The notes under the pieces were generated by a model. It had not been told where the DNA came from and made no database searches. It saw only the letters and a list, made by a program, of their open reading frames with translations. Of a DNA stretch of 64,000 bases, positions 12,410 to 61,119 are shown in pieces. Source of the DNA: Protoeuglena noctilucae (lineage: Eukaryota); assembly GCA_958009085.1 (NCBI GenBank), contig OY253673.1:620001-684000 (forward strand), given 5' to 3'. Both the position numbers and the translations under genes were made by a program. Position 1 is the stretch's first letter. Every line of letters starts with the position of its first letter.

Positions 12410-12803
12410 GCGACACGAGCGCGGGCGCCGCGCCTGGCGGCGGGCTGCCCGCGTGGGGAAAAGTTTGCTGTGGGGCGCCCCGGGCCCTCCCCGGACCCCC
12501 CAACCGATTCCGTTAGCTGTCACCTAAGAGGAACGCAACGATCGATAAGAACGTTCTCCTTCTGCCGCACTTGACGACGGTCATGAGAGGCACGGCCCCA
12601 CTTCTTTATTTCGTATTTTTGGGAACCCGCCCTTCTTCACAATTCCATCCAATCATCGGAGCGTCGAGCCATCAATGCATTTGTCGACGCATAGTGGGCT
12701 CAGCTTGCCCACTTAGCCTAGCTTGCTATTGCCCTGCCTGCTGCAGCACAGAGTGCAAAGGCCCAACAGCGCCTACACGCATCCTATGAAAGCACATTGA
12801 GGC

Positions 12804-18467: not shown

Positions 18468-19860
18468 ATGGCTACGGGAGCTCAATTACAAAATGTCGCG
18501 CGCACGAGATCGCACGCAGCGTGCTCCTGTCGGCCGCGGGGCGCGAGAACAGTCGCACGTGCCTTCAATCTCAACATCTTCGCCAAGCAGGGCGTGGCCT
18601 CGCAAAACCAGCAGTTCGGGAGCTTGAAGGTGTCGCAGATCGGGCTAGGGACATGGTCATGGGGCAACAAGGTCCTCTGGGGATACGATGAGTCGATGGA
18701 CGAGGAGCTCCAGGAGGCGTTTAACCTCGCCTCAGCGCAGGGCGTCAATCTCTGGGACACGGGAGACTCGTACGGTGTAGGTACGCACCTGGACCGGGGC
18801 ATTGACTGTCTGCCTTCGCCCGTCGAGAGCATGGGCTGATGACATGACGCTTGCGTGCTACCGCAGGGGCCCTGAACGGCCGGGCGGAGCAGCTGCTGGG
18901 CAGGTTTGCCGCAGCGTCCGGGCAAGCATCGAGCACCGTGGTGGCCACGAAGCTCGCGGCCTACCCTTGGAGGGTGACGCCGGAGTCGATGGTGTCGGCC
19001 TGCGAAGGGTCTCTGCGCAGGACGGGTCTGTCCCAAATGCCTCTGGTGCAGCTCCACTGGAGCACAGGTGCGCATTGTGGACGGAACACAGGGAGAGTGC
19101 ATGTGAGCGCAGGCGCGTACCCTCTGGATGTGGCCCCGGGCTCACACGCAGAGAATTACCAGCCGCTTCAAGAGCGTGCCCAGTGGGAGGGGCTGGCGCG
19201 GATATACGAGCGGGGGCTCGCGAAGGAGGTGGGCGTGAGCAACTTCGGGCCTCGGCAGCTCGAAAAGATCCACCGCAGGCTCTCCGAGGAGCGGGGCGTG
19301 CCCATCGCCAGCGCACAGGCGCGTGCCTGACACAGCTGCCCGTCTGGGCTGCCTGCGCACGTCGTGGCGGCGTGCGCGGCGTGACTACAGCGAACGTGTC
19401 CCCCATCCCGACTCCGATGCAGGTGCAGTTCTCCCTGCTCTCTTACGGCGCTCTGCAACGTGATGTGGTGGACACGTGCCGAGGCCTGGGGATCGGGGTC
19501 ATTGCGTACAGCCCGCTGGGGCTGGGGATGCTGACGGGCGCGTATGACGTCGAGCGGGGGTGGCTGCCTCCCGGGCTGCGCGGGCAGCTTTTCCGACAGG
19601 TGCTGCCGAAGGTGCGCCCTGTGACGGAGACCCTGGGGGCCATTGCCAGGGAGCGGGGACGGGACCCGGCGCAGGTGGCCGTGAACTGGTGCATGCGCAA
19701 GGGGACGGTGCCGATCCCGGGGGCCAAGAGCGTCAAGCAGGTTCGGGCGAACCTGGGGGCGTGCGGGTGGGCGCTGAACGCTGCGGAGGTCGAGGAGCTC
19801 GACGCGGCCGTCGGCAGGTGCACGGGGGGCATGGTTCAAAACATATTCAGCACCAAATGA
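18468..19860 (+). CDS. PLR1: Aldo/keto reductase, pyridoxal reductase PLR1-like, with probable transit peptide
   Basis: GLGTWSWGNKVLWGY, DTGDSYG, ATKLAAYPWR, QLHWS, VGVSNFGP, ASAQ|VQFSLL, IAYSPLGLGMLTG, VPIPGAKS, NLGACGW. Confidence 0.88.
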
Positions 19861-25480: not shown

Positions 25481-28400
25481 ATGTCGCAAGCCAAGGTCGA
25501 TCTCGCCGGGCTCCGGGAGTCGTTCAAAGCTCAGGTGCGTGCATTTAACGCGGGAGCCTCGCCGGCTCAGCCGCCACAGCCCCCGCGAAACAAGTGCATC
25601 GCAATATGTATGATGCACCGATGGCGACGAGAATCGGCCTTCGACCAGCACCGGCGAGGGCACGGATGTGATGGGGTTCGAGCCGAGGAGGGACGGCGTG
25701 TTCTCCCAGGGGACGATTTGCCGGCATCGCCGTGCTCATTCGCATCTTCTGTGAAACAGCGCGCTCCTGTCTCGGCGCGGCCCCACTTTGCGCTCCCTGC
25801 GGCGTGCCCAGGGCCCGACAAGCCATGCGTCCCTTTCTCACAGACCACCGCGGTCCAGAGCGCGATTGCCTCGCTGGTGGAATGCCAGGACTTCTTCAAG
25901 GAGCTTAAGATGAACTCCGAGTCGCTGTTCCAGGTTTTCGCGATGCAGCGGCAGAATCTCCTGCAGGTGAGAGAGGCCACGCAGATGGCCCTTGGCAGCT
26001 CGTCCGGGTCCTTCCCACGACGAGGGTGGTTTCGCACGACGCCAGCAAGCGCGGCTCGCTGACCCTCCCGCAGGGCATGCAGAGCGACGACTTTGATCAG
26101 GTCAGCTTCGCGAGCCTTGATGGGGACAGTCCACCGGCGTCGGGACCGGCCAGCGCGGGGCCTACCAGCATGGACGCGATCAAGATGGAGCAGTTGCAGC
26201 GGCAGGTGGAGGCGCTGAAGCTGCAGAACAAGAAGCTGGAGGCGGCGACCGCGTCGAGCTCGGCGAGCCGAGAGGTCGAATGGCTGACGGAGGAGAACCG
26301 GAAGCTCAAGGCTCGCGTCGCGGAGCTGATCGGCAAGAGCCAGGGCGCGTCGGACGAGGGCGCGGAGCTCCAGCAGCGGGCCGCGGAGCTCGAGCGGGAG
26401 GCTGAGTCGTTGCGGCGGAAGCTGGACGAGGCCGTGAGCGCCAGGTGGGAGGAGACGGGCGGCCGGCGGGACCCGGATGCGGTTCTTGCGGTGCCGGGCT
26501 AGTAGCTGAGCGAGCAGGCGCGGGCTGTGCACGCCCGTGGGGCGTGTGGCAGGCAGGTGTCGAATGGGATGCTTGGCGTTGGTCGCAGGGAGAGGCTGGA
26601 GCGCGAGGTGGGCGCGAATGCGGAGCAGGGCCGGTCCGAGGCGACACAGCTGGCGGCGGAGGTGTCGGAACAGCGGCGAAAGGCCGAGGATTTGGGCTCA
26701 AAGGTGCGCGGAGGGTCCCAAGCGCATGCAGTGGTCCTATGTGTCTCTGTTCTGTCTTTGTAGATGTCATGCGTGCCGTCTGCGCTCGCGCAGGTGGAGG
26801 CGCTGCAGCGACAGGTGCAGGACCTGACGGGGGAGCGGGACACGCTGCGCGCGAGGGCGCGAGAGCTGGAGGAGTCGCAGGGCCGGGAGCTCGCGGATCT
26901 GCGGTCGCGGGCAGAGACGGCGGAGCGGGAGGCCGCGGAGGCGCGGAGCGACCGCGACGCGGGGGCGGCGCGGGAGAAGAAGAACTCGCTGCAGCTTCGG
27001 ATGAAGCAGGCGGTGGGCGTGGCCATCATGGACGAGCTGGCGGCGCGGTGTCTCGCGGATAACTTCCGCCAGATGGCCGAGGGCGTGCGGGCGCAGCTGG
27101 AGCAGGAGCTGACCACGGACGTGCTGCGGAGCCTGACCGCGGCCCTGAGTCAGGTCGTGCAGCACGTGGCCATGGGCGAGTCCGCCAAGTGGCGCGAGCT
27201 CTACGGCCACGAGCACCGGTGCGCGTGGCGCGGGGCCCTGGACCCGGCCGGCCCTTGCTACCTGTTGCCATGGCGTGCCCTGGATGCACCTCTGGGTCTC
27301 TCGCCCCGTCCCTGCAGCGCGCGCAAGCGGATCCACGACGAGCTGATGGAGCTCAAGGGCAACATCCGCGTGTTCTGCCGCACCCGCCCCATGGACCAGC
27401 GCTTGGAAACTTTGGAGGGCCACTCGGTGGCGGTGCAAGTCGTGAACGACATGACGCTGCGGGCGGGCGAGAAGGGCCAGGCGATGCGGTCCTTTGACTT
27501 CGATTGCGTTTTCGGACCGGATTCGACGCAGGAGCAGGTGTTTGAGGAGGTTCAGCACCTCGTCACGTCCGTGCTCGATGGGTTCAATGTCTGCATCATG
27601 GCGTACGGGTGAGGCGGCACACGCACGCGCAGCTCGCGCGGTTGCGTGCGCGCTGGGACGCGTTCGGCTTGTCGCTCCTGTCGACCGGATGGACAAGGCG
27701 GTGGTCTGCTGCATCTGTGCGCATGCGCGCCTGCCCCGTGCCTGCACGCAGACAGACCGGCTCTGGCAAGACGCACACCATGGAGGGCCCTCCGGAAAAC
27801 CCCGGCGTCAACCTCCGCGCCCTCGAGCGTCTCTTCGAGGTGCGGAGCGCATTTGCAAGGCCGCTTGCCAGATTCCATGCCACTCGCCTGCACTGCCGGG
27901 TGACCCGGCACGTCGCTGCCCCGCAGGTGCGCGCGGCCAGGCGCGGGGCCAAGGAGATCGCCATCTTCGCCTCCGCGATCGAAATTTACAACGAGGCGGT
28001 TCGGGACTTGCTCAGTAAGGACCCGCAGGTCAGCTGCGTCGCGCTCACGATCTGCACGCCGCCCCGCTTCCCTCGCCTGCGCGCCCTGCGCTGACAAACG
28101 CGGCCCCTCGCTGTTCCGCGCGCAGAGGAAGCTGGAGATCAAGCAGGGTGCGGACGGGATGTTCGTGCAGGACCTCGTGCGTGTTCCTGTGGAGAGCAAG
28201 GACGACGTTCTGGCGCTGATGGCGCGTGCCAAGGGCAACCGCGCTACGTTCAGCACCAACATGAACGAGCACTCGTCGCGTTCGCACAGCATTCTGACCG
28301 TGTACATCGAGGCGAAGGACCAGTCGACGGGGGAGCAGACGCGGTCGAAGCTCCATTTGGTCGACTTGGCGGGGTCTGAGCGGCTGTCCAAGACGGGGGC

Positions 28401-31390: not shown

Positions 31391-32906
31391 ATGTCGGGGC
31401 TCCTCAAGCAGGTGGCCCAGCAGGCCGCGCGCGGCCTGGCGACGAAGGGCTCCAGCGGGTCGCTGCCGCCCCGCAAGGTTGCCGTGTTGGGTGCGGCCGG
31501 CGGCATCGGGCAGCCGCTGTCCATGCTCATGAAGGTGGGGAGCGGGACGCCAGGCGACTCGACCCTCGCGCGCCCCGGGCCCGCCCCAGCGCTGCGGAGA
31601 GGGACGGTTGCGTTGATGGGTTGCACTTGCGGCAGGCATCGCGCCGGAGCCGGTGTCAACGCGTGCACGCCCTCGCTGTTCCCAGATGAACCCACTCGTT
31701 TCCGAGCTGGCGCTGTATGATATCGCCAACACTCCCGGGGTTGCGGCGGACGTGGGCCACATGAACTGCCGGGCGAAGGTCACGGTGAGGCGGGGGCCCC
31801 TTGCGCGGGAATCGCGCCCTCAAGCAACGGTACCGTTGGCCGGCCCCGGGGGACCCGGCGCGGGCCCCTGAGCGCGCGATCTCCCGGAAGCGGACTCATT
31901 CGTATCACATCAGCGAATTGGCGAAGGCGCGAGGCGCCTCACGCCCTGGCTACGCCCCGCGACGCACGCTCCCTCTCACTTCCCCTCTCCCGCGCCTCCC
32001 GGCGAGCCCCAGACCCCATGGTTCGTGTCACGTGCAGGGGTACGCGGGCGACGATCAGCTGGGCGCGGCTCTGAAGGGGGCGGACGTGGTCATCATCCCC
32101 GCCGGCGTTCCGCGCAAGGTGCGTGCGCAAGCAGTGGAAAGCCTGTCCCCGCCCCGCGCCCCGGCGCCGGGCGGTCGGCGAGGCGATCCGCTACTTCTCC
32201 TTCGCAGCCGGGCATGACCCGCGACGACCTCTTCAACATCAACGCGTCGATCGTGCGCAACCTGGTCGAGGCGGTGGGCAAGCACTGCCCCGGGGCCATC
32301 ATCAACATGATTTCCAACCCCGTCAACTCGACCGTCCCGATCGCCGCCGAGGTCCTCAAGAAGATGGGCGTGTACAACGCCCGCAAGCTCTGCGGCGTGA
32401 CCACGCTCGACGTCGTGCGCGCCAAGACCTTCTACGCCGAGCGCAAGGGCCTGAACGTGGCGGAAGTGGACATCCCGGTCGTCGGCGGCCACGCCGGCGT
32501 CACCATCCTGCCGCTCTTCTCCCAGGCGACCCCCCTGGTGCAGTTGACGGCCGAGGAGCGCGCCGAGCTGACGCAGCGCACCCAGGACGGCGGCACGGAG
32601 GTGGTGAACGCCAAGGCGGGCAAGGGCTCGGCGACGCTGTCCATGGCGTACGCGGGGGCCATCTTCGCCGACGCGTGCCTCAGCGGCCTCAACGGCGTGG
32701 CCGGCATCGAGCAGTGCGCGTACGTCCAGTCGGACGTGGAGCGGGTACCGTACTTCGCCTCCAAGTGCACGCTGGGCCCCGAGGGCGTGACCAAGGTGCA
32801 CCCGCTGGGCCCCCTCCACGAGTTCGAGAAGCAGGCGCTCGACAAGATGATCCCCGAGCTCGAGAGCTCCATCGCCAAGGGCATCAAGTTCGCGCGCGAG
32901 CCCTGA
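31391..32906 (+). CDS. MDH: NAD-dependent malate dehydrogenase, mitochondrial type, 4 exons
   Basis: Presequence-like N-terminus, [83 protein letters not shown]. Strongly biased codon usage. Confidence 0.97.
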
Positions 32907-33016
32907 GGGGCGAGGGGTCTTCTAGGGGCAGTCTCTCGCTCACGGGGCGTCGCAGCCGCAAGCCGTTGAAGAAAGGGAGAAAACCTGGGCGCTGCCTGGC
33001 ACCGGCGGGGCACGGC

Positions 33017-34046
33017 TCAGTCGGTCTTGTCGGAGCGGCGGAGGAGGCGCCGAAGGTAGACCACCGCCCCCGCGAAAAGTCCGTAGAACACCCAGTGGAC
33101 GACGAAGAAGACGGCGAACGTCCACTGCGGCGCAGCGGGGGTGCAGCGGGGTCCGGGAGCATTGCGCACCACGCTTCGGGGGGTGCTGGGCCACTGCCTG
33201 CACGCCGCTCACCCGCGCGTGTGGCAGCTCGTGGTCGAGGAACACGTAGATCCACCACCCGTGCCGCTGCCGGAACCACATGACGAAGAAGGTGTACGCC
33301 GCCGAGTAGAGCGACTGCACCCCGAAGAAGAGGCTCGGGGACAGGGGTACGTCCGTGAGGACGGCGTCCGCGAGGAGGAGGCCGAGGTTGCCGCCGTGCT
33401 GCAGGTTACTCGTCCAGTTGAACAGGAGCTGCTTGGCGACCCGCGTGACCTCCGGGTCTGCGTGGTTCCGGAGCATGGGCCACAGGAGCAGCCATGTGGT
33501 GAGCGTGACGTTGAGCGTGCTGCAGCCCAGCATGTTGAAGAGGGCCGTGACGGCGAAACCGAGCCTGGACATGTCCTTGGGCGGCTTGGGTCGCCCTTTG
33601 GCGTCGCCTTCCTTCCGTGCAGCGGCCGCCGCGTTGACCCTCCCCAAGTACCGCAGCGTGGCCGTCGCGGCCAGGAGGAAGTAGAGCGTCATGCAGCACC
33701 ACGTGAGGACGGTGAAGTACTTGAGCACAGCCGTCCCCCGCGCATAGAGCTGCAGGGCCACCACCGCGGCCCCGAGAAGGGCGCAGCAGGCACTGCGCAG
33801 GGGCAGAGAGACATATGAAGGCCAGAGATTTCGACGCATGCGATTTGGCATCTCCGTGCGCCATCCTCACCGGTACACGAACACATACTCGGGCTCCACG
33901 GCGCGAGACTCGGCCACCCACGCCTCCGGGTGCCTCCACACTGGCCCACTCCGCGACACCTGCAGTCCCAGGACCCACGCGCCGTGCCCTCCGCCCAAAA
34001 TCAACGTGGCCCAGCGCGGCCCGACCAGGCTAATATCGACAGGCAT
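33017..34046 (-). CDS. Multi-pass membrane protein, rolling stone/FAR-17a/AIG1-like (paralog A); may extend further 5'
   Basis: MPVDISLVGPRWATL, LKYFTVLTW, FNWTSNLQHGGN, WIYVFLDHELP. Last exon WTFAVFF...SDKTD* with stop at 33017-33019. Confidence 0.75.
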
Positions 34047-39746: not shown

Positions 39747-42505
39747 ATGGCGAAGGAGAGGCGGGAGAAGGCCGCCAATGGCGAGGACTCGGCGGCGAAG
39801 AAAGAGAAGAAGCGATCGCGCCACGAGGGCGAAGATGTTTTCAACGGCGTGAGCGAGGCGAGCAGATGCAGCCGAGCGTTGTCTGCGCCTCCCCAAGCGC
39901 ACTGGTCAGCGCGACGCGACGCTGTCCCCGCCACGCTCCTCGCAGGAAGAGGCGCGACGGGAGAAGAAGCGCCTGAAGAAAGAGAAGGCGAGATCCCTGC
40001 AGCACAGTTTACGGGCACACCATGCCGACCCAGCTCATCCTCACTCTGCAAAGCGGGATGCTTGGCTGCCACGCAGGCGCCGGTGACGTCGCCACCACCG
40101 CTGAGCTGGCCGTCTGTTTGATTCCCGCCGCAGAAGCGAGAGCGGGCCGAGGGGCGCGAGTTGAGCGACGGCGCTGCGCCGGCGGGGCAGGAGGGGAAGG
40201 GCAAAGAGGGCAAAGAGGAGAAGAAGCAAAAGAAGAAGAAGGCAGCGCAGGCACTAACGGAGTCCCAGGGCTTCAACGCCGGCGCGCGTGCCAAGATCGG
40301 GGACCATGACCTGGCCGACGCCCGGCCTCCCATCGTCAAGGCGCTCTTCAAGGAGCACCCTGACGTGGCGGCCATGTCGCAGGAAGACGTGGACGAGCTC
40401 ATGTCGTCTCTGCGGTGAGGGGCGGCTGAGGTGCCCAGGCACTACAACAGGCGCGGGCGCGGATGGTGGGGCTGCCGGCCATCGGGGGCAGAGGGTGCCT
40501 GGATGGCTGAAACTGGACACGCGGCGACGCAGCAGGGATACAAAGTTCACCTCCGTCGCCGCCTGTTGCCTCTCTCGCCTCGCAGCTATCGCCATGGCTA
40601 TGACTGCTATGGAAACCGTGGCTGCTCTTCTGCGGCCCATTGCAGGATCACCGTGGAGAACTGCTCGTCGCGGCCAGTGACTCGATTTGACCAGTGCGGC
40701 TTCACGCGTGGCGTGCTCAAGTGCACTGAGGCCTTCCTTCGGCCCTCGCCCATCCAAGCCACGTGCTGGCCTGTGGTGCTTTCGGGCAGGGACATGGTGG
40801 GCGTCTCCGCGACGGGCTCCGGCAAGACCCTCGCGTTCGGCCTGCCGGCCCTCATGCACATCCTGGCGCAGCGCAAGGCCGGGCTGGTCCAGGGAAAGAA
40901 CCCCAAAGTGTTGGTCCTCTCGCCGACCAGGTGCGTTGCCATACCGTGACGCGACACCCGCCATACAGGGGTCTCTTGACTCGGTTTGGACATCGTTGGC
41001 ACCCTTGCAACGCAAGTCACAGCTCTGTGCGACGACACGCTGCAACACACGAGGGTGGCCTGCGTGGGCAACGCTACGGGTGTGATGCGCCCTCAGGGAG
41101 CTGGCGATGCAGATCGCGGAGGTGCTGACGGAGGCGGGAGAGCCCGAGGGCATCACGATCCTGTGCTGCTACGGGGGCGTGCCGAAGCGAGACCAGCAGC
41201 AAGCGCTGCGCAAGGGTGTCGATGTGGTCGTGGGAACGCCGGGGAGGCTGCAGGACCTGATTGAGGCGAGTGGCGGCTGCCGGTAGTCGATGGATAGCAC
41301 CGCCGGCCGGCGGCAAGCCCAGGGACGCTTTGCATGGAGCGTGGGGAGTGGCGGTCCTGGCCACACCCGTCGAACGCAGCTCCGCGCCCGTCGCGTCGCA
41401 GGACAGCTCGTGCCGCCTGTCGGGCGTGAGCTACTTCGTCTTGGACGAGGCGGACCGGATGCTGGACTTGGGTTTCAAGCCGGCCATCGAGGCCATCGCG
41501 CGGGGGGTGCGCGCCGACCGTCAGACGCTCATGTTCAGCGCCACGTGGCCCAAGGAGGTGCAGGAGCTCGCCAACGACTTCCTCTCCAACCCGGCTAAGG
41601 TCGTCGTGGGGTCCCAGGACCTGGCCGCCAACCACGCCGTGCGGCAGGTGGTGGAGGTGATTGATCCGGAGCAGCGGGGCAAGCGGCTGCTGGACCTGCT
41701 GGAGGAACACCACGGGAGCAAGGGCCGGAAGAACCGGGTCATGGTTTTCGTGCTGTACAAGAAGGAGGCCTCGCGAGTGGAGTCCTTCTTGCAAGGGAAG
41801 GGGTGGAAGGCGGCAGCCGTCCATGGCGACGCCAGCCAAGCGGAGGTGCGGCGCCGCGAGCGACTCCGACATTGCGAGAAGTGTGCGCGGTGCGCGTGCG
41901 CGAGTGACGCTCGCCGGTGTGGGCCTGCGCGCAGAGGACGCGGGCAGTGGAGGCGTTCAAGGCGGGGACCGTGCCGCTGCTCATCGCGACGGACGTGGCT
42001 GCGCGGGGCCTTGACATTCCCGACGTCGAGGTCGTTATCAACTACGCCTTCCCGCTCACGATCGAGGACTACGTGCACCGGATCGGAAGGACGGGTGCGT
42101 GGCCGTCACGGGGAGCTGAGGGTGGCCCCAGTGATGCCGGCAGTGTGCGGTGCGTTGCGTCACCCTTTCTGGCCTGGCCACTCGCAGGGCGCGCGGGCAA
42201 GACGGGAGTGTCGCACACCTTCTTCCAAGCGGTCGCGGACAAGGCGCGCGCGGGCGAGCTGGTGAACGTGCTGCGGGAAGCCAAGCAGGCCGTCCCGCCG
42301 GAGCTGCTAAAGTTCGGCACGCACGTCAAGGTGAGGCGTTGGTCGACGGAGAGCGCGTGTCGTTGTGTGGCTCGCGTGGCGATTGACCGCTGCGTTTTCG
42401 CCATGCGCGCAGAAGAAGGAGAGCAAGCTGTACGGAGCGCACTTCAAGGAGATCGACACCAGCAAGAAGGCGCAGAAAATGACGTTTGACTCTGACTCGG
42501 AATAG
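39747..42505 (+). CDS. DBP3: DEAD-box RNA helicase, Dbp3/RH5-like
   Basis: Lys/Glu-rich N-terminus, [100 protein letters not shown]. Confidence 0.93.
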
Positions 42506-42820
42506 CGGGCTCTGATTGTGAAAAAGCGCGGATTGAGTGAAACCCGATGCCCCGGCTGGGTCAATCGCTGACAAACGTCGTTCACGCGACTTCTCGCCTC
42601 GGTTTGGGGCGTTCATGCTCAAAACCGTTTGTCGACGACGCTTTCGTCACGCCAGCACTGTGCTTGGCCCCCGTTCCGTCCCTCTTCCACGAGTCAGTGC
42701 GCGGAACAGCAGCCACCATTTCTGCCGCGCCACTCCGTGGCTCCGTTGTGGAAGTGTCGCGTTTGAAGGGCGCGGACACGAATTCGTGGCTGAGCTGTCG
42801 CGGCTGGGCGGCGCCGGCGG

Positions 42821-43756
42821 ATGCAGCTGTATGGTGGGGAGGGAGGGGGCCCAAGATTTAGGGACAGGTTCGTGCCTCTGCGCACGCGGAGGTATGACAT
42901 GCAGCGCAAGTTAATCAGTTTACCTGGCAGCAAACACCGTGCGGCGTACCTGTGGCCCGCAGGCCTCGCCTGGACCCCCTCGTCTATGTCGCCCCATCAG
43001 GGGAGAAAATTGGGCAGCTGCCGGGCGTGCAGGCTTCGCGCACGCGCATTGAGGTCCAAGTCTCGGCGAGCTTCGCGGAGCTGATGCGGGCAGGGAGCTT
43101 GCGGTCCAACAACCATCATCTACCTGAGCTGGAAGGGCCCCGGGGACCCTTGCCGGGCCCCTTGCCGGCGCGGACCCCGAGGAACTGGGCGGCGGACCTG
43201 GCAAAGCGCGGCATCCCAGCCGGGGTTGCTCGGCTGGGCTCCATCGAGCGCGCCAGCCCCCGGGGCGGGCCGCCGACCGTCGCGAACGACACGTCGTGGC
43301 TGACGTCGGCACCCGGCACGGCCATGCAAGGGTGCGGGCCGCACCGACTCCGCACCAGCGATTCTCGATGCAGCCGCGTGCAGCTTCGCCGACCGCCCCC
43401 ATCCAACCCCCAACTGCAGGCCCCAGGAGAGCCGGTACGTGACGGTGGCGCAGGGAGGGGCCATCGACGCGCACTCGCCGGGGGGCCGCGGCTTCGTGAC
43501 GCAGGACGGCAAGCTGCATCGGGAACCCACGCTGGGTGTCCTGCAGCGCATCCAGGGCCGGGCGGAGCAGGTCGCGCGCACGCAGCAGGAGCGTCAGCAG
43601 GCGCTTGAGCTGAGAATGCAGGGCACCATCGGTGAGCTGCAGCGGAGTAGCAGGTACATGTCGCCCGGCGATGCATGCGGCATCTGGGCAGAGACCCTCT
43701 CTGCCTGTTCGTGCCCCGCAGCGCGCAAACGGGAGCAGCGGGAGCGATACTTTTAG
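42821..43756 (+). CDS. Hypothetical protein, 4 exons, C-terminal coiled coil
   Basis: MQLYGG...RTRR|PRLDPL...TAMQG|PQESRY...LQRSS|ARKREQRERYF* joined in frame by GT-AG introns. Confidence 0.55.
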
Positions 43757-44075
43757 GGCGTGGCTCTCGATCGCGCGAGAGCCAAGACGCCGAACCTCGG
43801 CATCAATCGGGCCCGGGAGCGCAACGACATGGCGTACGGAGAACGCAACTTGCAGCGTGTCGGAACCAAGCAGTGACCAAGCATGTGTCATCGGTTGACA
43901 CATGACAGGATAGCTCAAGTGCACAGCTAAGCCCCGTTTGATTTCCTACATTTGCCGCCACCTCTCTCCATGTTCACTCGTACCCTCTTGCCCGTCTGTG
44001 TATCCCAGAACCATCATGGGGCTCGTTGCCCATGATGGCTCGCCGACGCTGTGGCAGGGATTTCAACAATTGGAC

Positions 44076-45340
44076 TCAAACCCACATGGCGACGATCGCC
44101 ATCGTGATGAATCCCAGCAGCAGCAGCACTACCTTGGCCAGCTTGCTCGGGTCACGGCCTTTGGAGAACTCCTTTGGGATTACCTCCTGGGGGTGTCAAC
44201 ACCCACGTGTGGATGATGTGAAATTGTGATGCATGCCAAGGCCAGGGAAGAGCAACCCCGCACGCCGCCGGCTCACCATCATCGCCACGTACATGAACGT
44301 GCCCGACGCGAGCGCGGTGGCTGCCGAGGATATGACCGAGCTGGCGATGGCACTGATGGCGAATCCCAGGAAGATGCCCGCGGGCGTCGCTGAGGCGAAG
44401 AACCAGACGACCGCGTTGAACCGGTTGACCTTAACGTTCGACTCCAGGAGCGTGGCGCCCAGTGCGTACGAGGCCAGGCCCTTGTGGGCCAGGATGGCGA
44501 TGAAGACGTCAAACGAGGACTCGAGACGCTTCTGCGCACCCATGGCGGCGCCCTCCAGGACGCTGCGCGCGCGAGCGAGGGGTGGCTGTGAGTCGAGAGG
44601 CCCACAGTCCCGCGGTGGTATGGGAGGGGCCACGGCTGCACAATGCGACTTCCCGCATCGCGCCGCCCTCGCCTGTGCACGCTGAGGGCGATGGCGAGGA
44701 TGAGGGAGCTCGTGAAAGTCACCGAGTGCCGCCCCACGGCCGCTGCGGCGCCGCTGTTGCTGGGACCCAGCAGTGACGCCCCTTCCGACACCGCAGGGAC
44801 AGTGCGGTCCTCCTCCGCACTCGCCCGGGCCGACCCCCGGGCGCCATGGGCCGTCCGATGCACCGCGGCCGAGTCCACCGGCGACCCGAACGCCCCCCCG
44901 CCGTCCCCCTCCGCGGGTGCTGCCGAGCGCCCCGCGTGCGCGGCCAACTCGACCTCAGCCGGGGCTACGTGCCCGCCGCCCTCGCCGTACGCGGCCGCGA
45001 CTTGGTCGGCCAGCAGCGTGACGAGGAACCCCACGCCCGCCAGGAGAGGAGCCATGGGGTACTCGAACAGCGGGCCCATCTCACGTGCCGCCTCCCCCAG
45101 CAGGTGGCAGAAGCCGGCCCCGAGCATGACGCCGCCAGACAGGCAGTTCCCGAGTTCGAAAAGCATGGACGTGGAGGCGCTGCCGCTGCGCGCGCGCCAG
45201 GACATCAGGAGCGCCGCGTAGGCGCCCCCGACACCGCAAGCGAGGAGCAGGGCGGCCGTGAGGACGTCGAAGACGAGGCGGTCGCTGACGCGGTCGTCGT
45301 GGGCGACCAGGTCGCTCGCGGCCAGGACGAGCCGCGGCAT
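44076..45340 (-). CDS. ZIP-family zinc/iron transporter, 3 exons
   Basis: GNCLSGGVMLGAGFCHLL, spliced signature IALSVH|SVLEGAAMG, AILAHKG, ATPAGI, ASGTFMYVAMM|EVIPKEF. Stop at 44076-44078. Confidence 0.93.
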
Positions 45341-45353
45341 CGGCAACGGTGTG

Positions 45354-45608
45354 TCACTTGGTCGCCGTGGCGAGGCCCAAGGTGTCGTCCAGCTGACGGA
45401 GGCGGTCCTGGCCCTGCCGCAGCAGGTGCTTGAGCTGCTGCTCGTCGGCGACGCGCTGCGACCGGAACTCCTCGCGAATGTGCGCGACCAGGGCGCCGCG
45501 GGACTGCGGCGGCGCGGCCCGCGCGGTGCGGAGGAAGCCGCGGTAGAGGGCGAGGACGTGCGAGCGGAGCAGGAACGAGCGCAGGCCGGGGCCGGCGGGG
45601 CCTGCCAT
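45354..45608 (-). CDS. LYR-motif protein (Complex1_LYR family), LYRM2-like, 84 aa, intronless
   Basis: FLLRSHVLALYRGFLRTAR...HIREEFR...LKHLLRQG...LRQLDDTLGL contains the LYR tripeptide and the downstream conserved Phe. Confidence 0.88.
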   Translation of the reverse strand: MAGPAGPGLRSFLLRSHVLALYRGFLRTARAAPPQSRGALVAHIREEFRSQRVADEQQLKHLLRQGQDRLRQLDDTLGLATATK

Positions 45609-45620
45609 TCCAGCGACCGA

Positions 45621-45957
45621 TCAGGAGTAGAAGAACCGGATGATGAACGTGAGGCCGAAGACGATCAGGACCGCCGTCCGGGACGAGATCGTCCCCTTGT
45701 ACACGAGCCCGGCGAAGGCCGCCGCGACCAAGACCAGCGCGGGGATCACCGTGTACGGGCCCAGGTACCGGCTCTGGATCTCTTCCCAGCTCGGGAAGGT
45801 GGACTCCGCCTGCGTCCTCTTCGAATCCTTGATGTGCTGCGCGGAGGAAGGGACGAGCGAAAGTCATGAAAGCTTTGCGCGGAGCTGCGATCAACTGCCC
45901 GGTAGTCGTCACGCACGGTACCTTCTTGATGGCCCTGGCTTGTGCCCCGCGCGGCAT
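45621..45957 (-). CDS. Small (83 aa) membrane protein with two predicted TM helices, unknown function, 2 exons
   Basis: Exons 45957-45922 and 45836-45621 with GT-AG intron 45837-45921 give MPRGAQARAIKK|HIKDSKRTQAESTFPSWEEIQSRYLGPYTVIPALVLVAAAFAGLVYKGTISSRTAVLIVFGLTFIIRFFYS*. Third codon positions are almost all G/C, as in neighbouring real genes. Confidence 0.75.
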
Positions 45958-46253
45958 GGTTCCAGCCTCACAGGCTCGCGATTTGCGCCGCGGCGAGAAA
46001 GATGAGCGAGAAGATCGATTTAACTCTGAAACGGCTCCGGATGGACTGGCTGGGTGGCAAGTGCGCGGACGAAGCGCCGGATTCGCTGTGCGCGGGGACG
46101 CTGCCGCCAAAATGAGAACCTTGCGGCAGTGACGCTGCCAGCCTACCAGACCGTGGGCCCGCAGAACCCCTGGCGGCCTGTGCTGGCGACATCCATGTCA
46201 ACACATCACCTTTGCAAACCCCACGGTGCAAGGGATCGCTTCCGCGGGTCACC

Positions 46254-47189
46254 ATGGGCTCGCCAACCCAAGAGATTGCCGCTCGCCTGAAGCAGGAGTG
46301 GCAAGACGGCACGACGCACCCCTTCCTGGACGGTGACGTAACACATCAGTCTTCTGATTCACTCACCGATGCCAGCCGAACGGTCCTGATGGCGGTTTCC
46401 TTCACAACCGCAGGGTGTGCCGATGGCTCGGTGTCTGCCAAACAGTTCGGGACGTGGCTTGTGCAGGACTTCATGTTCGTCCTCGCCTTCACCCGGTTCA
46501 TGGGCAGCGTGCTCTCCAAGGCCCCCGAGGTGTGCGCGCCTTGATACCTGCTGAGTCTGATGAAGCCTGCCACAGCCTGCACTCTACTGCCCTGCCCAAC
46601 CCAAACAGCGCATGTCCCGCAGAGCCACCTGCACGTCTTGCTCGACGGCACCAAGTTCATCCAGGACGAGCTGACGTGGTTCCGCGCCAAGATGGCCGAG
46701 CGCGGGCTGGACGCAGCGTCCGCGCCCCAGCACGGCACATGCGCGCGCTACTGCCGGTTCCTGGACTCGCTGGGGTCGCGGCCGTACGCCGACTGCGCCG
46801 TGGCCTTCTGGGCCATCGAGGCCATGTACCTGGAGGCCTGGGCGGGCGTGCTGGCGAAGGTGACGGCCATGTGCCTGGAGGCCTGGGCGGGGGTGTCGGC
46901 GAAGGCCACGCCTCTCACACGGGTGCCGCACACCGGCCGGTGCCATCTGGGCCATGAAGGTTCCCGGCAAGCTTCTGTGCCTCTGCAGAACCCTGAGACG
47001 CCGTACAAGGAGTTCGCGATGCGGTGGGCGAGCGATGGCTTCCGCGCGTATGTCGCGCAGCTGCGGCAGCAGGCGGACGAGGCCGTGGCGTCGCTGTCGA
47101 GCGGGAACTGGGCCGCGCAGGCGGAGGACCTCGTGCGCGACATCTGCGTCCTGGAGAAGGAGTTTTGGGGTATGGCGTGGGGAGCTTGA
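46254..47189 (+). CDS. TENA/THI-4 family protein (TENA_E-like, thiamine salvage), 4 exons
   Basis: TTHPFLD|GCADG...FGTWLVQDFMFV, IQDELTWF, FWAIEAMYLEAW, YKEFAMRWASDGF, LEKEFWGMA. Confidence 0.9.
46821..46905 (+). repeat. Imperfect tandem duplication with 45-bp period across an exon/intron boundary
   Basis: gccatgtacctggaggcctgggcgggcgtgctggcgaagg (46821) versus gccatgtgcctggaggcctgggcgggggtgtcggcgaagg (46866). Confidence 0.9.
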
Positions 47190-47600
47190 CGCGTCGTCGG
47201 ATGCTTGACGTAGTTGTGCTGCGTCTTCAAAGAAGGAGTTGAGGAATCATGAAGGCAGTGGGATGCTTCTGTTGTGCTGCACTTGCCAGGTCGGTACCCG
47301 AACGCTGTTCTTTCTGACCTCCCGCGTCGCCAGCATCACGAGCATTTCATGCGGATGGCAGATTGAACATCGATTGTGGTTTTGAGGCTGCAGCGAAGGC
47401 GGGGACATCTGAGGACATCTCGGCGAGGGTGACTGGCGCGTCGTGTGCCGCCCGGCGCTGGACCGCACGCGATGTTTTCATGAGATCGACCCGCGCACCG
47501 CTGTGTGGAGCGCAGATGCCGAAAGACGCGTGAAAACTAGCTATTGTGCTCTGCATGTCCAGGGACGGCGTCGTCGTTGGGGCGAGCCAGGGTCCGCGGA

Positions 47601-55041: not shown

Positions 55042-57444
55042 TCACAGCTCCTCCGCAGCTTGCTTTTGGCACAAGTCCTGCGCAAGGTACCCCCGGAGCA
55101 TCTCCCGGGCCTCCGGAGGCTTGGTCTGCGGCACCATATGCCCGGCGCCCTTGACGGTCACGTACTGCAGGCCCTTCCACGTCACACAGTACCCCGCGAC
55201 CTGACCGTCGAGCTCCCAGGGCGCCCACTCGGCCACCAGGTCCAGCCCCCGCTTCCGAGCGAGGTCGCGCGTCCAGGCCTCCGACCCCGTGTGCGGCACG
55301 GCTGCGGGCGCCGCGGAAGTCACTTTCGCCATCCATCGACCCCCAACTGACCCAGCGACACGCCTGGTTCTCGCGCGCGATCCTCACCCATGTCGTGGTC
55401 GCCAGAGTAGACCAGTGCCCGCAGCCCTGCCCCGATGAGCTTGGCGTGGTAGGGGAGCATGCTTCCCAGGTCGTGGCGGTAGGAGAAGTTGATGCCCATG
55501 TTACACAGCTCCCACTCGCCGATGTCCTCCACGGCACGTGCGTGGATGGCCTGGCGGACCGCGGGGTCGTTGAGCCAGCGCGTCGCCAGGACGTCGTCTG
55601 TGCAGGGCACCGTGGGAGCCCCGGCTTGCCGGGCGTACCGCCCCCAGTGATGCACGGGACCCGGGCGCACGACAGGGCCGAGGGGCCACCCGATCGGACC
55701 CACGTCCGACAACGCCGCGAGCGACGCGGCCCGCGCCGTGGCAGAGCCGTGGTAGCAAGGCAGCAGGACGTCGTACACATCCAGATCGAGCAGGTCGTTG
55801 CGGACCTGCAGCACCAGCTCCGCGCAGGCCTCTGCGGCGACGACGTGGGACGACAATGTCAGCTGTCACAGGTGTGGAGCTGGTCATGGTGCGGAGCAGT
55901 CCTGGGTGCGGAGCTGTCACTGGTGCAGAGCTGTCAAGGGTCATCACCTGCCTTAGTAAGGGACGGGGGCAGCGGCACTCACCCGAGGTCGGGCTGTAGA
56001 TGTCCTGTCCCTTGCACGCCTTGGTGGCTCGCTGGTACAAATCTTGGGAGATGAGGGACTTGCCCACCGCGAACGGGAACAGGGCGCGCGAGTCGTATTT
56101 CTCGTCTGTCACGCCGTTGCCCACCACGTACCCCTTGAGGTTCACATTGGGCTGCAGCCCCGCGTGGTTGCCGTCAAGCAGCGCCGCCGTTACTGCGGGA
56201 AGCGAAGTTGGCTGTCTTATTGACTGAGATCGCAAAGCGTGGCTCCAAGGGCCCAAGTGGCGGTTGTACAGAGGATACCAAAGCGTGGCAACGCGACTAC
56301 CATCACTTGCACACACATATGGGATGACCCATCCATGCTCCCATATTCATGCTCACCCGTGGGCACGAATACCCCCGCGTACGACTCCCCGGTGATGTAG
56401 ACGTCGTTGTCCTCGAATCCAAAAAAGTCCACGAGCATGCGCACGAAGAGCGACATGTCCCTCGCGACGGTCGAGTCCGTGCTCTCCTCGCAGCCCACCG
56501 CGTCGCAGTAACTGAGGCCGACACCTGCGGACAAGGGATGGCTACTATGCAAGGTGTCCGCTTGCACTTGCCACGCTCGGCCTCATGCCATTAGATAACG
56601 ACAGTGTGATTAGTGTGATGCGAGGTGCACCCTTTCGAGGCGCGCAGTCAACTGACCCTCCTCGACATGCGTGGTTTTGATGGGTTAGGCCGACCCTGAT
56701 GATACATATTGCGATAGCAGCAGTCGTCACCTACGGGGTTGTCGACCCAAACCACAGTGGCCTCCTTGGTCCACCCGTGGGGGTTTACCGAGAGCACGGG
56801 CAGGCCGTCAGGGTCGCTGGGATTCTTGCTGAACAGGTAGGGGCCGTGCTCGTAGATGAAACCCTCCATGGAGCTGCACCCGGGGCCTGGGAGAGCGAGG
56901 CAGGTGCACGAGCGTCGATGGGCTGTGCGCTAGTGGGTTGCATCAGTGGGCCAGGCCGGTGGACCCAAGTTAGTCCACGGGCCAAGTCGCTGGTCAGCTT
57001 GGCGCGCACACCTCCGTTCATCCAGACCACGACGGGGGCGGAGGAGGCGTGGGAGGGGTCCTCCTTCAGCTGCATGTAGAAGAAGACATGGCGGTCCTGC
57101 GCCTCGTCGACCGTGATGTAGCCCGAGTACGTCTGCCCGGCCAGCTGAGGGGCGCTCAGCCCAGGCAGGTGGTCCACGGGGTGGATGTCATAGACGTCCA
57201 CGCCAAAACGACGAGGTCCTCGCGGCCAGGCCTCTCCCGAGGGCTCCACCCTCGCCGGGTCGAACAGCCGCCCGGGACGAACGGTACGGGCGCCTGCGCG
57301 GGCCATGACACGGTGTGGGTCCTCCGGGAAGCGGGATCGAGCTCCGCACGAGTTGTTGCGGGGGAATGAGGTCGCACCTGACGAAAGGGACGCCGTCGCT
57401 GCCAACGCGACAATCAGAAAAGCGATTTGCATGCGGGAGAGCAT
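55042..57444 (-). CDS. Serine carboxypeptidase (peptidase S10), secreted or vacuolar, 6 exons
   Basis: Signal peptide, YSGYITVD, WMNG|GPGCSS, YEHGP, DNPVGVGLSY, ITGESYAGVFVP, NLKGYVVGNG, VYSGDHDM, TVKGAGHMVP; the Ser/Asp/His triad is intact. Confidence 0.95.
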
Positions 57445-57729: not shown

Positions 57730-58949
57730 ATGGCGGCAATCCACTCCCTGAGCCCTCAGGCGTCGCTGCCGTTGTGGAAGAAGCGCGTCCTCGTCACGGC
57801 GCCCCGCCAATACGCCCCTCGTCTCATCAGCGCGATCATTCAGCGAGGCGGCCTTCCAGTGTGGCTCCCTACGATCGAGGTCTGCGACCTGGAAGAGACT
57901 GACCCTTTGGACAACGAGGTGCCTCAACGTGCGCACGCTGTGGCGCACCTGTTCCTCCCGCCTGGCCCCACCGCGTTTCTCCTCCCGGATCGTGTCCCCA
58001 GGTCCGGCGCCTGGTGGATGGTCACTTCACGCATGTCTTGTTCACCTCCCGCAACGGCATCGACGCCGTCATGCGCCGCGCCGCGCACATCCTAGGGGGC
58101 GAGGTCGAGGCAGCGTCGGCGATCAACAGCAGCGGGGCGCGGGTCTACGCATTGGGCGCGGACTCCAACGTGCTGCGGGAACTGGGCGTGCTGTGCGCCA
58201 CGCCTCGCGAGCCGAGCACACAGGCGAGGACAAGCCAGGCGCCCCTGCCCTGCCGGTGCTGGTCAACCCATGTCCGTACCATACAACCCCGCCCGAAATG
58301 TCTTGTGACAGTGCTCATGCACTGTCGCACGAGCCAGCACCCAACGCCCACGCCACCCTCAGGGCTTGGTGCGAGACCTGGAGGAGAGCGGGGAGGCGTT
58401 GGCTGCCGTGGCGCTGTGTCCCGTCCCGCGCGTCACGGGCGGCCTCACGGAGCCTCCCGTGGTGCCCAAGTTCCTGGCGGGATTGGAAGCTGCGGGGGCG
58501 AAGGCCGTCCGCGTCGACGCCTACGTGACCCGGGCAGGGGCCGCCCCGGGAGACTTTGCGGTGGAGACAAGCCTTCTCAAGGGCGGGGAGATGGACGTGG
58601 TGGTCCTGTCGTCGACGGTTGAGGCGCAGGGGCTGTTGATAGCGACGGGCGGGGCGGATGCGCTCGCGAGCGCGATAGCCAAGGGGCTCGTGCTGGCGGC
58701 GCACGGGCCCTACACAGCCAAGGGCGCCCAGGCCGTGCTCGGGTGAGGGCAGGGGTGACAGCCAAGGCATCTCTCACTGCCGTGGTGATTGTTGGGCTGA
58801 CAGGGTTTCTCAAGCCATAACGTGCTCTGCGCTCCTGTCGTCGTCGCAGGTACGAGGTGCCGGTCGTTGGCCAGAATTACTCCACCTTCGACGGAGTGTG
58901 CGAGGCGCTATCGGCGCACTTCAACGGGGAGGGCAATTTGAACACTTGA
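57730..58949 (+). CDS. hemD: Uroporphyrinogen-III synthase (HemD)-like protein, cyanobacterial type, 4 exons
   Basis: KRVLVTAPRQYAPRL...GGLPVWLPTIE, LFTSRNGIDA, ALGAD, EPSTQ|GLV, LTEPPVVPKFL, VRVDAYVT, LSSTVEAQG, AHGPYTA. Confidence 0.82.
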
Positions 58950-59106: not shown

Positions 59107-61119
59107 TCAGCCCAGCAGGTCGGCGAAGGGGTCCTTTGCCGCGGGCGCAGCTGGCTGACTGCTCACGCCCATCCCAGCGCCCGTCCCCACGCCCATGCCC
59201 ATGCTCCCCATGCCCATGCTCCCGGACGGGCCCGTCCACTGGCCGTTCGCCGCCATCCCCATCACAGGCGCTGCGCCGTTGGCTCCCATGCCCATACCCA
59301 TGCCCACGCCACCACCCATGCCCATGCCCCCACCCATGCCCATGCCGCCACCCATCGGGGGTACCTCCGGCACACCGAAGATGTCCGCCGCCAGCGGGGC
59401 CCGCGTCGTGGCCGGCTTGGCCGCCGGCACATCCGCCCCAGCGAACGCGTCGAAGTGCCCGCCGGACGCCGCGGGAGGCTTGGCCGCCGCAGGCTTGGCG
59501 TTGAGCGTGTCGGCCCCCGCAAAGGCGGCCCATTGGTCACCGCCCCCCGCAGGCCCCGCGTCGTGCGTGTCCGCCGCGGCGAACGCGTCCCACTGGTTGT
59601 GACCGGCCGCGGTGGGGGCGGCGGGCGCGGGCGCGGGGACGTCGACGGCCAGGAGGTCGTTCAGGCTGTCAGACGGGGCGGGGCTGGCGCCAGCGAGGCT
59701 GGCGGGCTTGGACGAGGTCGAGGGCGCGAGCTTGATGTTGGCGAAGGACGCGGCGATCTTGGAGTCGACCTTGGTGCTGCTCAGCTTCTTCTGCGGCGAG
59801 CGGCGGCACGGTGCGCGGTGCGGCACGGGGTACATGTACAGGGACGGCCCATGCACCGCCACGTCTGGCGCTGGGCACGGCGCGGGTCTCGCCCCGCTGC
59901 CTGCCGGCGTCGCAATCCGCGCGTCACCTTGGCTTCCGCGGACGAGAAGGACGGCGGGTCGTTGGCGCGGAGCTTCTCAATCCGCTGCTGCGTGGCGGCG
60001 AAGGCGTCGTCGCTGCCCGCGTAGCCGCTCCCGCCCTCGAGCGCCTCGCTCGTGATCATCTTGTCGGGCGCCTCCGAGGTGACCATGCCGCCTGTGTCGA
60101 AGCCAGAGGCCTTGAAGGCGCCGAAACCGCCCGCGGCCGCCCCGGCCCCACCGGCCTTGCCGAAGCTGCGGGCGAGGAAGGGTCGCAGCGTCGCGGGCTC
60201 CCCGCAGCGTGTCGCGCGCCCGGGGCATTCGCTCCCGGCGCCGGCGCTCGCCTGTAGGAGCCCTCCGAGGTGGTCCCGTCCGCCGCCACGTTGTGCATGC
60301 GGCTGGCCTTCTCCCGCTCGGCGTGGATGCGCTCCGGGTCCCGGATCAGCGCCCCGAGCTCCTTAGCGCGGTGGCGCACGTTCAGCCCGTGGTCCTTGCC
60401 CTTGGCGTCCACGTAGATGAAACCGTCCCGGAGCTTGTCGATCGTGTCGACGTTCCCCTGGAGCTCGTTGACCACCACCTGGGGCCCGTTCTTCAGAAGA
60501 TGGTCAAGGACAAGCAGGGACTTGTACACCTGCCGCCACTTCTCCCCTGCGAGCGGCGGCACGGGGCGCTGCGTGGGGCCGGTAAACAGAAGCCCCCCTC
60601 GCGCCCGCGCGCGGGCCGGGACGGCGGGCGGACCGGCGAAACGGGCCCTCGAGTGATTTTGCAGTGAGTTACGACGCGCGCGCGCAGCGCACCCTTCTCC
60701 TGCAGCCTCCGAGCGAGGACCCCCATGATCTGTTTGTAGCCCTCGGGGTCGAAAGACATCTCTGCGATTTCGTTGAGCAGCTGCCCGTGGGGACCCCAGG
60801 GCTCCGCGTTCGTCGCCTCCTCGACCTGGGGACGGCGGAGCGAAGCGCCATCAGCGCGCGGGGGGACGAGGGTGGGGCTCGTGCCGCCCTAGCGCGCGCC
60901 CCCAGATGCGCGCCGCGAGAACGAAATACGGCCGCCGGGGGTATCCACAGAGCATCTTCGCGACAAATGCAGAGAAAGGACGCAAGCTCGCTGCCCGGGG
61001 ACCGTCCGACCGCGCTGTGGCCCCTGCCCGCGCCGTGCCTTCATCTCCAGGTCGCTCAGGGAGAAGGCGTATTGCTTGGCCTTCCTGGCCAGGTTCTTCA
61101 TCCTCTCCTTGAAGTCCAT
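59107..61119 (-). CDS. ENTH-domain protein (epsin/epsinR-like clathrin adaptor), 5 exons
   Basis: SDLEMK|VEEATNAEPWGPHG, KWRQVYKSLLVLDHLLKNG, GKDHGLNVRHRAK. Tail with WDAF/WAAF/FDAF motifs, a Met-Gly-rich stretch and DPFADLLG*. Confidence 0.93.
59190..59360 (-). repeat. Coding low-complexity (ATGGGC)n Met-Gly repeat
   Basis: Repeated cccatg/gcccat on the plus strand; translates to MGGGMGMGGGMGMGGGVGMGMGMG. Confidence 0.8.

Follow-up and report, generated by a model that had tools for sequence, protein, structure and literature searches.

The 64,000-nucleotide (nt) stretch of Protoeuglena noctilucae contig OY253673.1 analyzed here (the window; positions 620,001 to 684,000 of the contig, G+C content of 67.6%, no N) carries, on its minus strand, three open reading frames (ORFs) in close succession. 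They encode a small two-helix membrane protein (ORF1, 83 amino acids [aa]), a LYR-domain protein (84 aa) and a ZIP-family metal transporter (354 aa), and are separated by spacers of 12 and 13 nt. A single spliced RNA contig extends over all three. Given this contig and the ORF spacing, the three frames therefore most likely reside on a single messenger RNA (mRNA), and we consider it probable that the locus produces a compact tricistronic nuclear mRNA with scanning-dependent translation of its three cistrons.

The positions of all features are listed in Table 1. ORF1 (252 nt) has one intron and begins with 12 codons in its first exon, MPRGAQARAIKK; the LYR ORF (255 nt) is intron-less, and the ZIP coding sequence (CDS; 1065 nt) is distributed over three exons. 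The first spacer, from the ORF1 stop to the LYR ATG, reads TCGGTCGCTGGA, and the second, from the LYR stop to the ZIP ATG, reads CACACCGTTGCCG. After splicing, the distance between the ORF1 and ZIP starts amounts to 252 + 12 + 255 + 13 = 532 nt. An earlier sequence-only reading had described three same-strand ORFs 12 and 13 nt apart, with about 530 nt from the first start to the last; upon rereading the sequence, both its coordinates and its gene models were found to be accurate. The arrangement was also searched for across the window by scanning for a stop codon followed by an ATG within 40 nt, and requiring a G+C content at third codon positions (GC3) of 0.85 or more in each flank. This yielded six matches, two of which share one stop. 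Because GC3 alone also selects antisense frames, the criterion was added that the G+C content at first positions (GC1) exceed that at second positions (GC2); in this crude scan, it held on both sides only at the two junctions of the present locus.

Table 1. Positions and supporting evidence for features of the three-ORF locus and other genes in the window
Feature	Position	Strand	Evidence or remark
Minimum 5' untranslated region (UTR), ATG-free (0 in 111 nt)	45958..46068	-	First 147 letters of X1 record 1 at 45922-46068; true start site may lie further out
ORF1 exon 1, start context ACCatgC	45922..45957	-	Sequence
ORF1 intron, 85 nt, GT-AG, contains ATG at 45867	45837..45921	-	Joint 45836/45922 in X1 and X4 RNA contigs, absent in DNA run X5
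ORF1 exon 2, TGA at 45621-45623	45621..45836	-	GC3 0.94; hydropathy; AlphaFold; P0001
Spacer 1, 12 nt	45609..45620	-	Sequence
LYR-domain ORF, start context GGAatgG, TGA at 45354-45356	45354..45608	-	PF05347; GC3 0.95; P0003
Spacer 2, 13 nt	45341..45353	-	Sequence
ZIP exon 1, start context CCGatgC	44673..45340	-	PF02535 positions 7-188, E 5e-12; N terminus aligns with relative P0008 from residue 3
ZIP intron 1, 110 nt, GC-AG	44563..44672	-	Joint in X1 and X4; ends CT..GC on plus strand
ZIP exon 2, HSVLEGAAMG region	44277..44562	-	PF02535 positions 190-287, E 1.5e-13
ZIP intron 2, 90 nt, GT-AG	44187..44276	-	RNA joint and sequence
ZIP exon 3, coding part, TGA at 44076-44078	44076..44186	-	PF02535 positions 289-323; spliced product is P0007
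Tail-to-tail region, ZIP stop to convergent plus-strand gene stop	43757..44075		X1 record 1 and X4 record 11 run through
IQ-motif protein	984-4064	-	Exon-level Pfam
Protein kinase	10869-12519	-	Exon-level Pfam
Aldo/keto reductase	18781-19857	+	Exon-level Pfam
Kinesin with microtubule-binding domain	26764-27609	+	Exon-level Pfam
Malate/lactate dehydrogenase	31872-32903	+	Exon-level Pfam
FAR-17a/AIG1-like	32943-33866	-	Exon-level Pfam
DEAD-box helicase	41261-42262	+	Exon-level Pfam
Serine carboxypeptidase S10	55045-55865	-	Exon-level Pfam
HemD	58309-58743	+	Exon-level Pfam
ENTH domain	60496-60888	-	Exon-level Pfam

Each of the three ORFs is a genuine coding frame, and all lie on one strand, as the sequence-only reading had assumed. 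GC3 reaches 0.94 in ORF1, 0.95 in the LYR ORF and 0.88 in the ZIP CDS, the ORF1 and ZIP frames continue across the splice joints, and both the LYR and ZIP products contain Pfam domains that score above the cutoff. Over the 84 codons of ORF1, GC1 and GC2 equal 0.50 and 0.48, respectively, values that a hydrophobic protein would give. The codon-position signal is absent from the ORF1 intron (G+C content of 0.61) and from the 5' leader (0.60). In addition, no open antisense frame with high GC3 was found over ORF1, and the strand of the RNA is set by the splice sites.

The ORF1 protein has two hydrophobic segments in its hydropathy profile, at approximately residues 36 to 63 and 60 to 80, and a single-sequence AlphaFold model places helices at residues 4 to 23, 29 to 58 and 64 to 82 (mean predicted local distance difference test score of 72). 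The spliced frame, whose product ends in FFYS, is identical to database protein P0001 over all 83 aa. From its sequence, ORF1 would best be classed as a small, lineage-restricted membrane protein with two predicted hydrophobic helices. A prediction of a complex between ORF1 and the ZIP transporter (score 0.00; mark 0.34) gave no verdict and carries no weight in either direction.

The LYR domain of the middle ORF is solid, with a match to PF05347 (Complex1_LYR) at E 4.6e-14 and 52.5 bits (cutoff of 24.8) and the eponymous tripeptide, L21-Y22-R23, near the N terminus. The more specific label "LYRM2-like," proposed in the sequence-only reading, is not supported, as PF20263 reached 21.5 bits, below its gathering cutoff of 26.8. 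The solved structure closest in sequence is that of the human MIEF1 upstream-ORF protein, a weak match (E 0.009, residues 15 to 66), followed by LYRM4 (E 0.08), so that these matches favor no subfamily clearly. The product is identical to database protein P0003, and the protein database search for relatives returned only the protein itself. Based on its family, we take the LYR-domain protein to be a mitochondrial assembly or regulatory factor that depends on the acyl carrier protein.

The ZIP exons tile the PF02535 profile end to end, from position 7 to position 323. The spliced 354-aa product matches database protein P0007 letter for letter, and P0007 carries PF02535 as its precomputed Pfam assignment. 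A relative, P0008, encoded on a 6789-nt contig, shows 69% identity. The top Atlas cluster is mostly from Streptophyta, but those that follow are from fungi and arthropods, so that no single lineage is indicated.

Transcription of the locus was assessed using assembled contigs from metatranscriptome runs X1, X3 and X4, aligned to positions 42500 to 47500, together with DNA run X5, one of four runs labeled with one organism. Sampled words of the locus were present at 57 to 77% in four marine metatranscriptome runs from one study, and all of them were present in the four organism-labeled runs. X1 record 1 (2878 nt) covers approximately 46068 to 45922, continues without a break from 45836 to 44673 across both spacers, and then includes the two further ZIP exons, with all three minus-strand introns spliced out. 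The same three splice joints occur in the X4 contigs, and X4 record 13 (45043-45460) spans the LYR/ZIP spacer in this second sample. DNA run X5 yielded a colinear contig with none of the joints; the X1 and X4 contigs are therefore RNA derived. Moreover, the database proteins P0001 and P0007 each lie on one contig, the longest being 3056 nt for both, which suggests that they share one complementary DNA (cDNA) contig.

The second line of evidence concerns the start codons. From 46100 to 45300, just four ATGs occur on the minus strand, located at 45957, 45867, 45608 and 45340. The one at 45867 lies within the ORF1 intron, and from 46068 to the ZIP start, the mature sequence therefore contains only the three cistron starts; a full ATG count thus agrees with the manual scan of the sequence-only reading, which had found no other AUG in the spliced stretch from ORF1 to ZIP. 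A composition-adjusted expectation modeled on that of Duenas et al. predicts 5.05 ATGs in the 643 nt ahead of the ZIP start. The two that are present are both cistron starts, and the probability of finding no non-start ATG in this stretch is approximately 0.006. The ZIP CDS, in comparison, has 13 ATGs versus 8.46 expected, 12 of which are in frame. Likewise, ORF1 and the LYR protein lack internal methionines, and the 354 aa of ZIP include 12 methionines. Since nearly every third position is G or C, ATGs out of frame are scarce anyway. What the signal amounts to is two proteins of 83 and 84 residues without internal methionine, and the scarcity of ATGs is moderately beyond chance.

In the mechanism that we propose, transcription would start from one promoter in the 296 nt that the locus shares with a divergent TenA-like gene. 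It would yield one spliced mRNA with three separate frames, encoding an orphan membrane protein with two helices, a protein with a LYR domain and a metal importer of the ZIP family. Ribosomes would load at the cap and scan, with part of them initiating at ORF1, part proceeding to the LYR AUG and the rest reaching the ZIP AUG. Passage to the downstream starts would be possible because no other AUG, in any frame, lies en route. The 12- and 13-nt spacers would also permit some terminating ribosomes to restart at the next AUG. We infer from the spacing, the RNA contigs and the AUG pattern that the three frames share one molecule and that all three cistrons are translated. Leaky scanning would be the main route, at about even odds when taken by itself, and reinitiation may contribute.

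Several observations weigh against this interpretation, concerning the RNA contigs, the start codons and ORF1. Regarding the RNA, X1 record 1 does not end at ZIP but extends to 43721, beyond which it passes three introns with plus-strand GT..AG ends. The ZIP transcript is therefore fused in this contig with a convergent plus-strand gene. The assembler evidently joins different overlapping transcripts, and a contig across genes is no proof of a single molecule; these are assemblies of short reads, which cannot reveal RNA ends. Among the 27 of 42 pieces listed, only X1 record 1 crosses spacer 1 with 31 nt or more to either side; X3 record 9, also among these pieces, reaches just 15 nt beyond the stop of ORF1. 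Contigs of run X3, whose depth is low, are interrupted beside both spacers, at 45351/45381 and 45603/45606; variation between strains, the low depth itself or genuine RNA ends could each be responsible. Hence, the earlier claim of one mRNA for three proteins stands in part, in that spliced RNA is continuous over all three ORFs but is found on a contig that also merges an opposite-strand gene.

These RNA data would also fit two or three monocistronic mRNAs that overlap in a compact genome and were joined into an assembly chimera, possibly coexisting with a polycistronic form. The genome is indeed compact, with 296 nt between the divergent starts and about 320 nt between the convergent stops, and in Chlamydomonas reinhardtii, partially polycistronic loci are as numerous as fully polycistronic ones (87 and 87), according to the accessible text and tables of Gallaher et al. 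2021 (PMC7896298). However, 12 to 13 nt are too short for a promoter or a 3' UTR, such that the ends of separate mRNAs would fall inside the CDS of a neighbor, and separate mRNAs would not explain why both upstream ORFs are entirely free of internal ATGs. The crude junction scan also detected no second locus of this kind in the window. Overlapping separate mRNAs are therefore an unlikely explanation of the locus.

With regard to the start codons, the scarcity of ATGs is less striking under a cruder control, since 6.9% of all 646-nt segments on both strands of the 64 kb contain three ATGs or fewer. The 5' leader, at least 111 nt long, exceeds the medians of 54 to 83 nt of published bicistrons. 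Furthermore, the start contexts are good for ORF1 (A at -3) and the LYR ORF (G at -3, G at +4) and poor for ZIP (C at -3, C at +4), so that the first context is not weak relative to those downstream. The sequence-only reading had already cautioned that the contexts form no weak-to-strong gradient, correctly so after rereading. A Kozak consensus drawn from the initial ATG of each coding-like ORF across the window was too noisy to serve as a reference. In the published green-algal loci, ORF 1 start contexts are weak.

This order of contexts is the reverse of what leaky scanning predicts and brings forward an explanation that overlaps with ours and differs in mechanism, namely, one tricistronic mRNA on which the downstream cistrons are reached mainly by termination and reinitiation 12 and 13 nt further on. 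The spacers are very short and nearly equal, and Duenas et al. 2025 cannot fully exclude reinitiation, to which short inter-ORF distances are suited (PMC11892635). In green-algal experiments, however, stronger upstream contexts or added AUGs decreased downstream output, which favors leaky scanning: ORF 2 output fell when the ORF 1 context was made stronger and also when an AUG was restored at a site 483 nt before the stop (PMC11892635). Reinitiation efficiency moreover drops with the length of the upstream ORF (PMC11892635), and the ORFs here have 83 to 84 codons. Finally, AUG depletion spans both upstream ORFs entirely and not just their stop-proximal parts. Taken together, reinitiation as the principal route appears fairly unlikely.

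The last observation concerns ORF1, which has no detectable relative among 5.8 billion clustered and 1.84 billion representative proteins. A word-indexed search of the former retrieved only ORF1 itself and a 42-aa fragment, and a full HMMER search of the latter gave four matches, the same 42-aa fragment and P0004, P0005 and P0006. Those three proteins are long and internally repetitive, and were judged spurious from their sequences. No Pfam family matched at E values up to 10. The best Atlas clusters, at 0.85, 0.81 and 0.80, are hypothetical clusters from giant viruses, all below the lead level of 0.9, and a Foldseek search of the AlphaFold model against the PDB gave nothing at E ≤ 0.001 (best E 2.6).

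Such an orphan might not be a functional protein gene and could instead act as a regulatory upstream ORF, or its TGA could be read through to give a membrane-anchored ORF1-LYR fusion. The 12-nt spacer keeps the LYR ORF in the frame of ORF1, with only one TGA and four sense codons (S-V-A-G) between them and no further stop. This in-frame spacing is nevertheless expected in one-third of cases by chance, the rate also found in green algae in the accessible literature, and the LYR ORF has an AUG of its own in a good context. The coding signal of ORF1 likewise argues against this explanation, given that its GC3 contrasts with GC1 and GC2 over the 84 codons and is not seen in the adjacent intron or UTR. 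In addition, the ORF1 frame is maintained across the spliced intron. We therefore regard a purely regulatory or read-through role of ORF1 as very unlikely and retain the tricistronic mRNA as the best explanation.

Under the tricistronic reading, one could further speculate that the three cistrons form an operon-like module made in fixed proportions, which would tie Zn/Fe uptake to the assembly of metal-dependent mitochondrial complexes, with the spacers serving as a termination-restart relay. This proposal is doubtful at present. If it were true and the host fell outside the core chlorophytes, RNA-supported nuclear polycistrony would be extended to a new marine lineage. A chlorophyte host is plausible and fits the compact, G+C-rich marine genome.

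Metagenome scans for conserved adjacency gave 593 pattern matches with the LYR protein, none of which was confirmed, and 272 with the ZIP alignment, one of which was confirmed; neither revealed a related locus. The single confirmed match (L001, 3676-3828) was rejected as a ZIP relative, being antisense to a bacterial sensor-kinase gene that adjoins an NtrC-like regulator gene on an ntrB/ntrC-like contig. Scans of the window for ribosomal RNA, transfer RNA and Rfam families gave no match, and the poly(A) signal TGTAA occurs 15 times versus 13 expected, without enrichment. The nine RNA-supported introns between 42500 and 47500 are unalike by eye, and the window-wide search identified no repeat family among them, so that introner-like repeats were not found. 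One of the nine, ZIP intron 1, has a GC donor (GC-AG).

Upstream of ORF1, a divergent, spliced gene of the TenA/THI-4 family starts at 46254 (+) in the context ACCatgG, 296 nt from the ORF1 start. RNA contigs reach into this gap (45958-46253) from either side, and it is probably a bidirectional promoter region, for which it is a candidate. The third RNA-supported intron of the TenA/THI-4-like gene (46860-46988, +) starts with a 45-nt tandem copy of the adjoining exon sequence that is 87% identical (46820-46909), and it looks as though this intron was created by tandem duplication of an exon segment. Downstream of ZIP, the convergent plus-strand gene has its stop at about 43756, and its frame ends in REQRERYF and the stop; an open frame at 43616..43756 (+) has the same end residues. 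The one exon-overlapping stretch of this gene that was scanned (43304-43753) gave no Pfam match. The two genes lie about 320 nt apart, stop to stop, and their 3' UTRs probably overlap, because RNA contigs run through 43757-44075. The genes recognized elsewhere in the window by exon-level Pfam matches are included in Table 1.

The existence of nuclear polycistronic mRNAs, contrary to the rule of one protein per mRNA, is well established, but they remain thinly sampled. Well-supported tricistrons are few, and published examples, as far as accessible sources describe them, have long spacers. With its two tiny, AUG-free upstream cistrons and its 12- and 13-nt spacers, seen in environmental RNA, the present locus offers a clean natural test of leaky scanning versus reinitiation. 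It also adds an instance to the unexplained recurrence of LYR proteins in polycistronic loci, and both ORF1 and the LYR gene would be overlooked by gene finders that assume one ORF per transcript.

For two chlorophytes, the accessible text and tables of Gallaher et al. 2021 (PMC7896298) count 87 and 173 loci that are exclusively polycistronic, each transcript encoding "two, three, or more" proteins. These loci often include the LYR motif, with an SDHAF3-like LYR protein paired with a TOM22-like protein and four other LYR subfamilies represented; pairs in Dataset S5 include a LYRM9-like protein with a transporter, an ETFRF1-like protein with a SET methyltransferase and a LYRM1-like protein with an oxysterol-binding protein (PMC7896298). 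In the "C. reinhardtii full" sheet of 87 loci, a third gene appears in two rows only, with spacers of 136 to 675 nt, and the sheet holds no spacer between 1 and 33 nt (PMC7896298). For published bicistrons, the accessible parts of both studies give ORF 1 medians of 291 to 357 nt and inter-ORF medians of 40 to 183 nt (Gallaher 2021, PMC7896298; Duenas 2025, PMC11892635). The lowest inter-ORF median, 40 nt, belongs to A. protothecoides (Auxenochlorella), whose REX1 spacer of 14 nt works in reporters, and the observed/expected ratio of AUGs ahead of ORF 2 is about 0.48 to 0.49 (PMC11892635). Neither the present gene trio nor the pairing of ZIP with a LYR protein was found in the searchable supplementary tables of the two papers (PMC7896298, PMC11892635).

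Compared with these systems, the locus is a further case of the established green-algal kind, unusually compact and with three cistrons. It shares with green-algal polycistrons unrelated ORFs on the same strand, very short spacers (12 and 13 nt), small first ORFs (252 and 255 nt) and AUG depletion before the downstream start. The AUG-free upstream region agrees with the published signature that the sequence-only reading had recognized, with no non-start ATG in 643 nt, alongside the weaker result of the segment control. A LYR protein is again among the cistrons, and one transcript is indicated by RNA data, here short-read contigs, whereas the published green-algal loci rest on Iso-Seq, chromatin immunoprecipitation (ChIP) and proteomics. 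It differs in its three cistrons, of which the accessible "C. reinhardtii full" sheet has only two cases, in its spacers of 12 to 13 nt, a length absent from that sheet, and in upstream start contexts that are not weak. The closest published counterpart in the accessible tables is the LYR and TPT/SLC35 transporter locus, where one mRNA likewise carries a small LYR ORF directly ahead of the ORF for a multi-pass membrane transporter. It differs in the transporter family (ZIP/SLC39 here), the LYR subfamily, the lack of a third cistron and the spacer, which is 111 nt in C. reinhardtii. Beyond green algae, the human MIEF1 upstream-ORF protein (AltMIEF1 or MIEF1-MP, part of a mitoribosome assembly intermediate) is likewise a LYR protein whose ORF precedes that of another gene on a shared mRNA. 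However, its similarity to the LYR protein described here is weak, it belongs to an animal gene, and the gene downstream of it is a different one.

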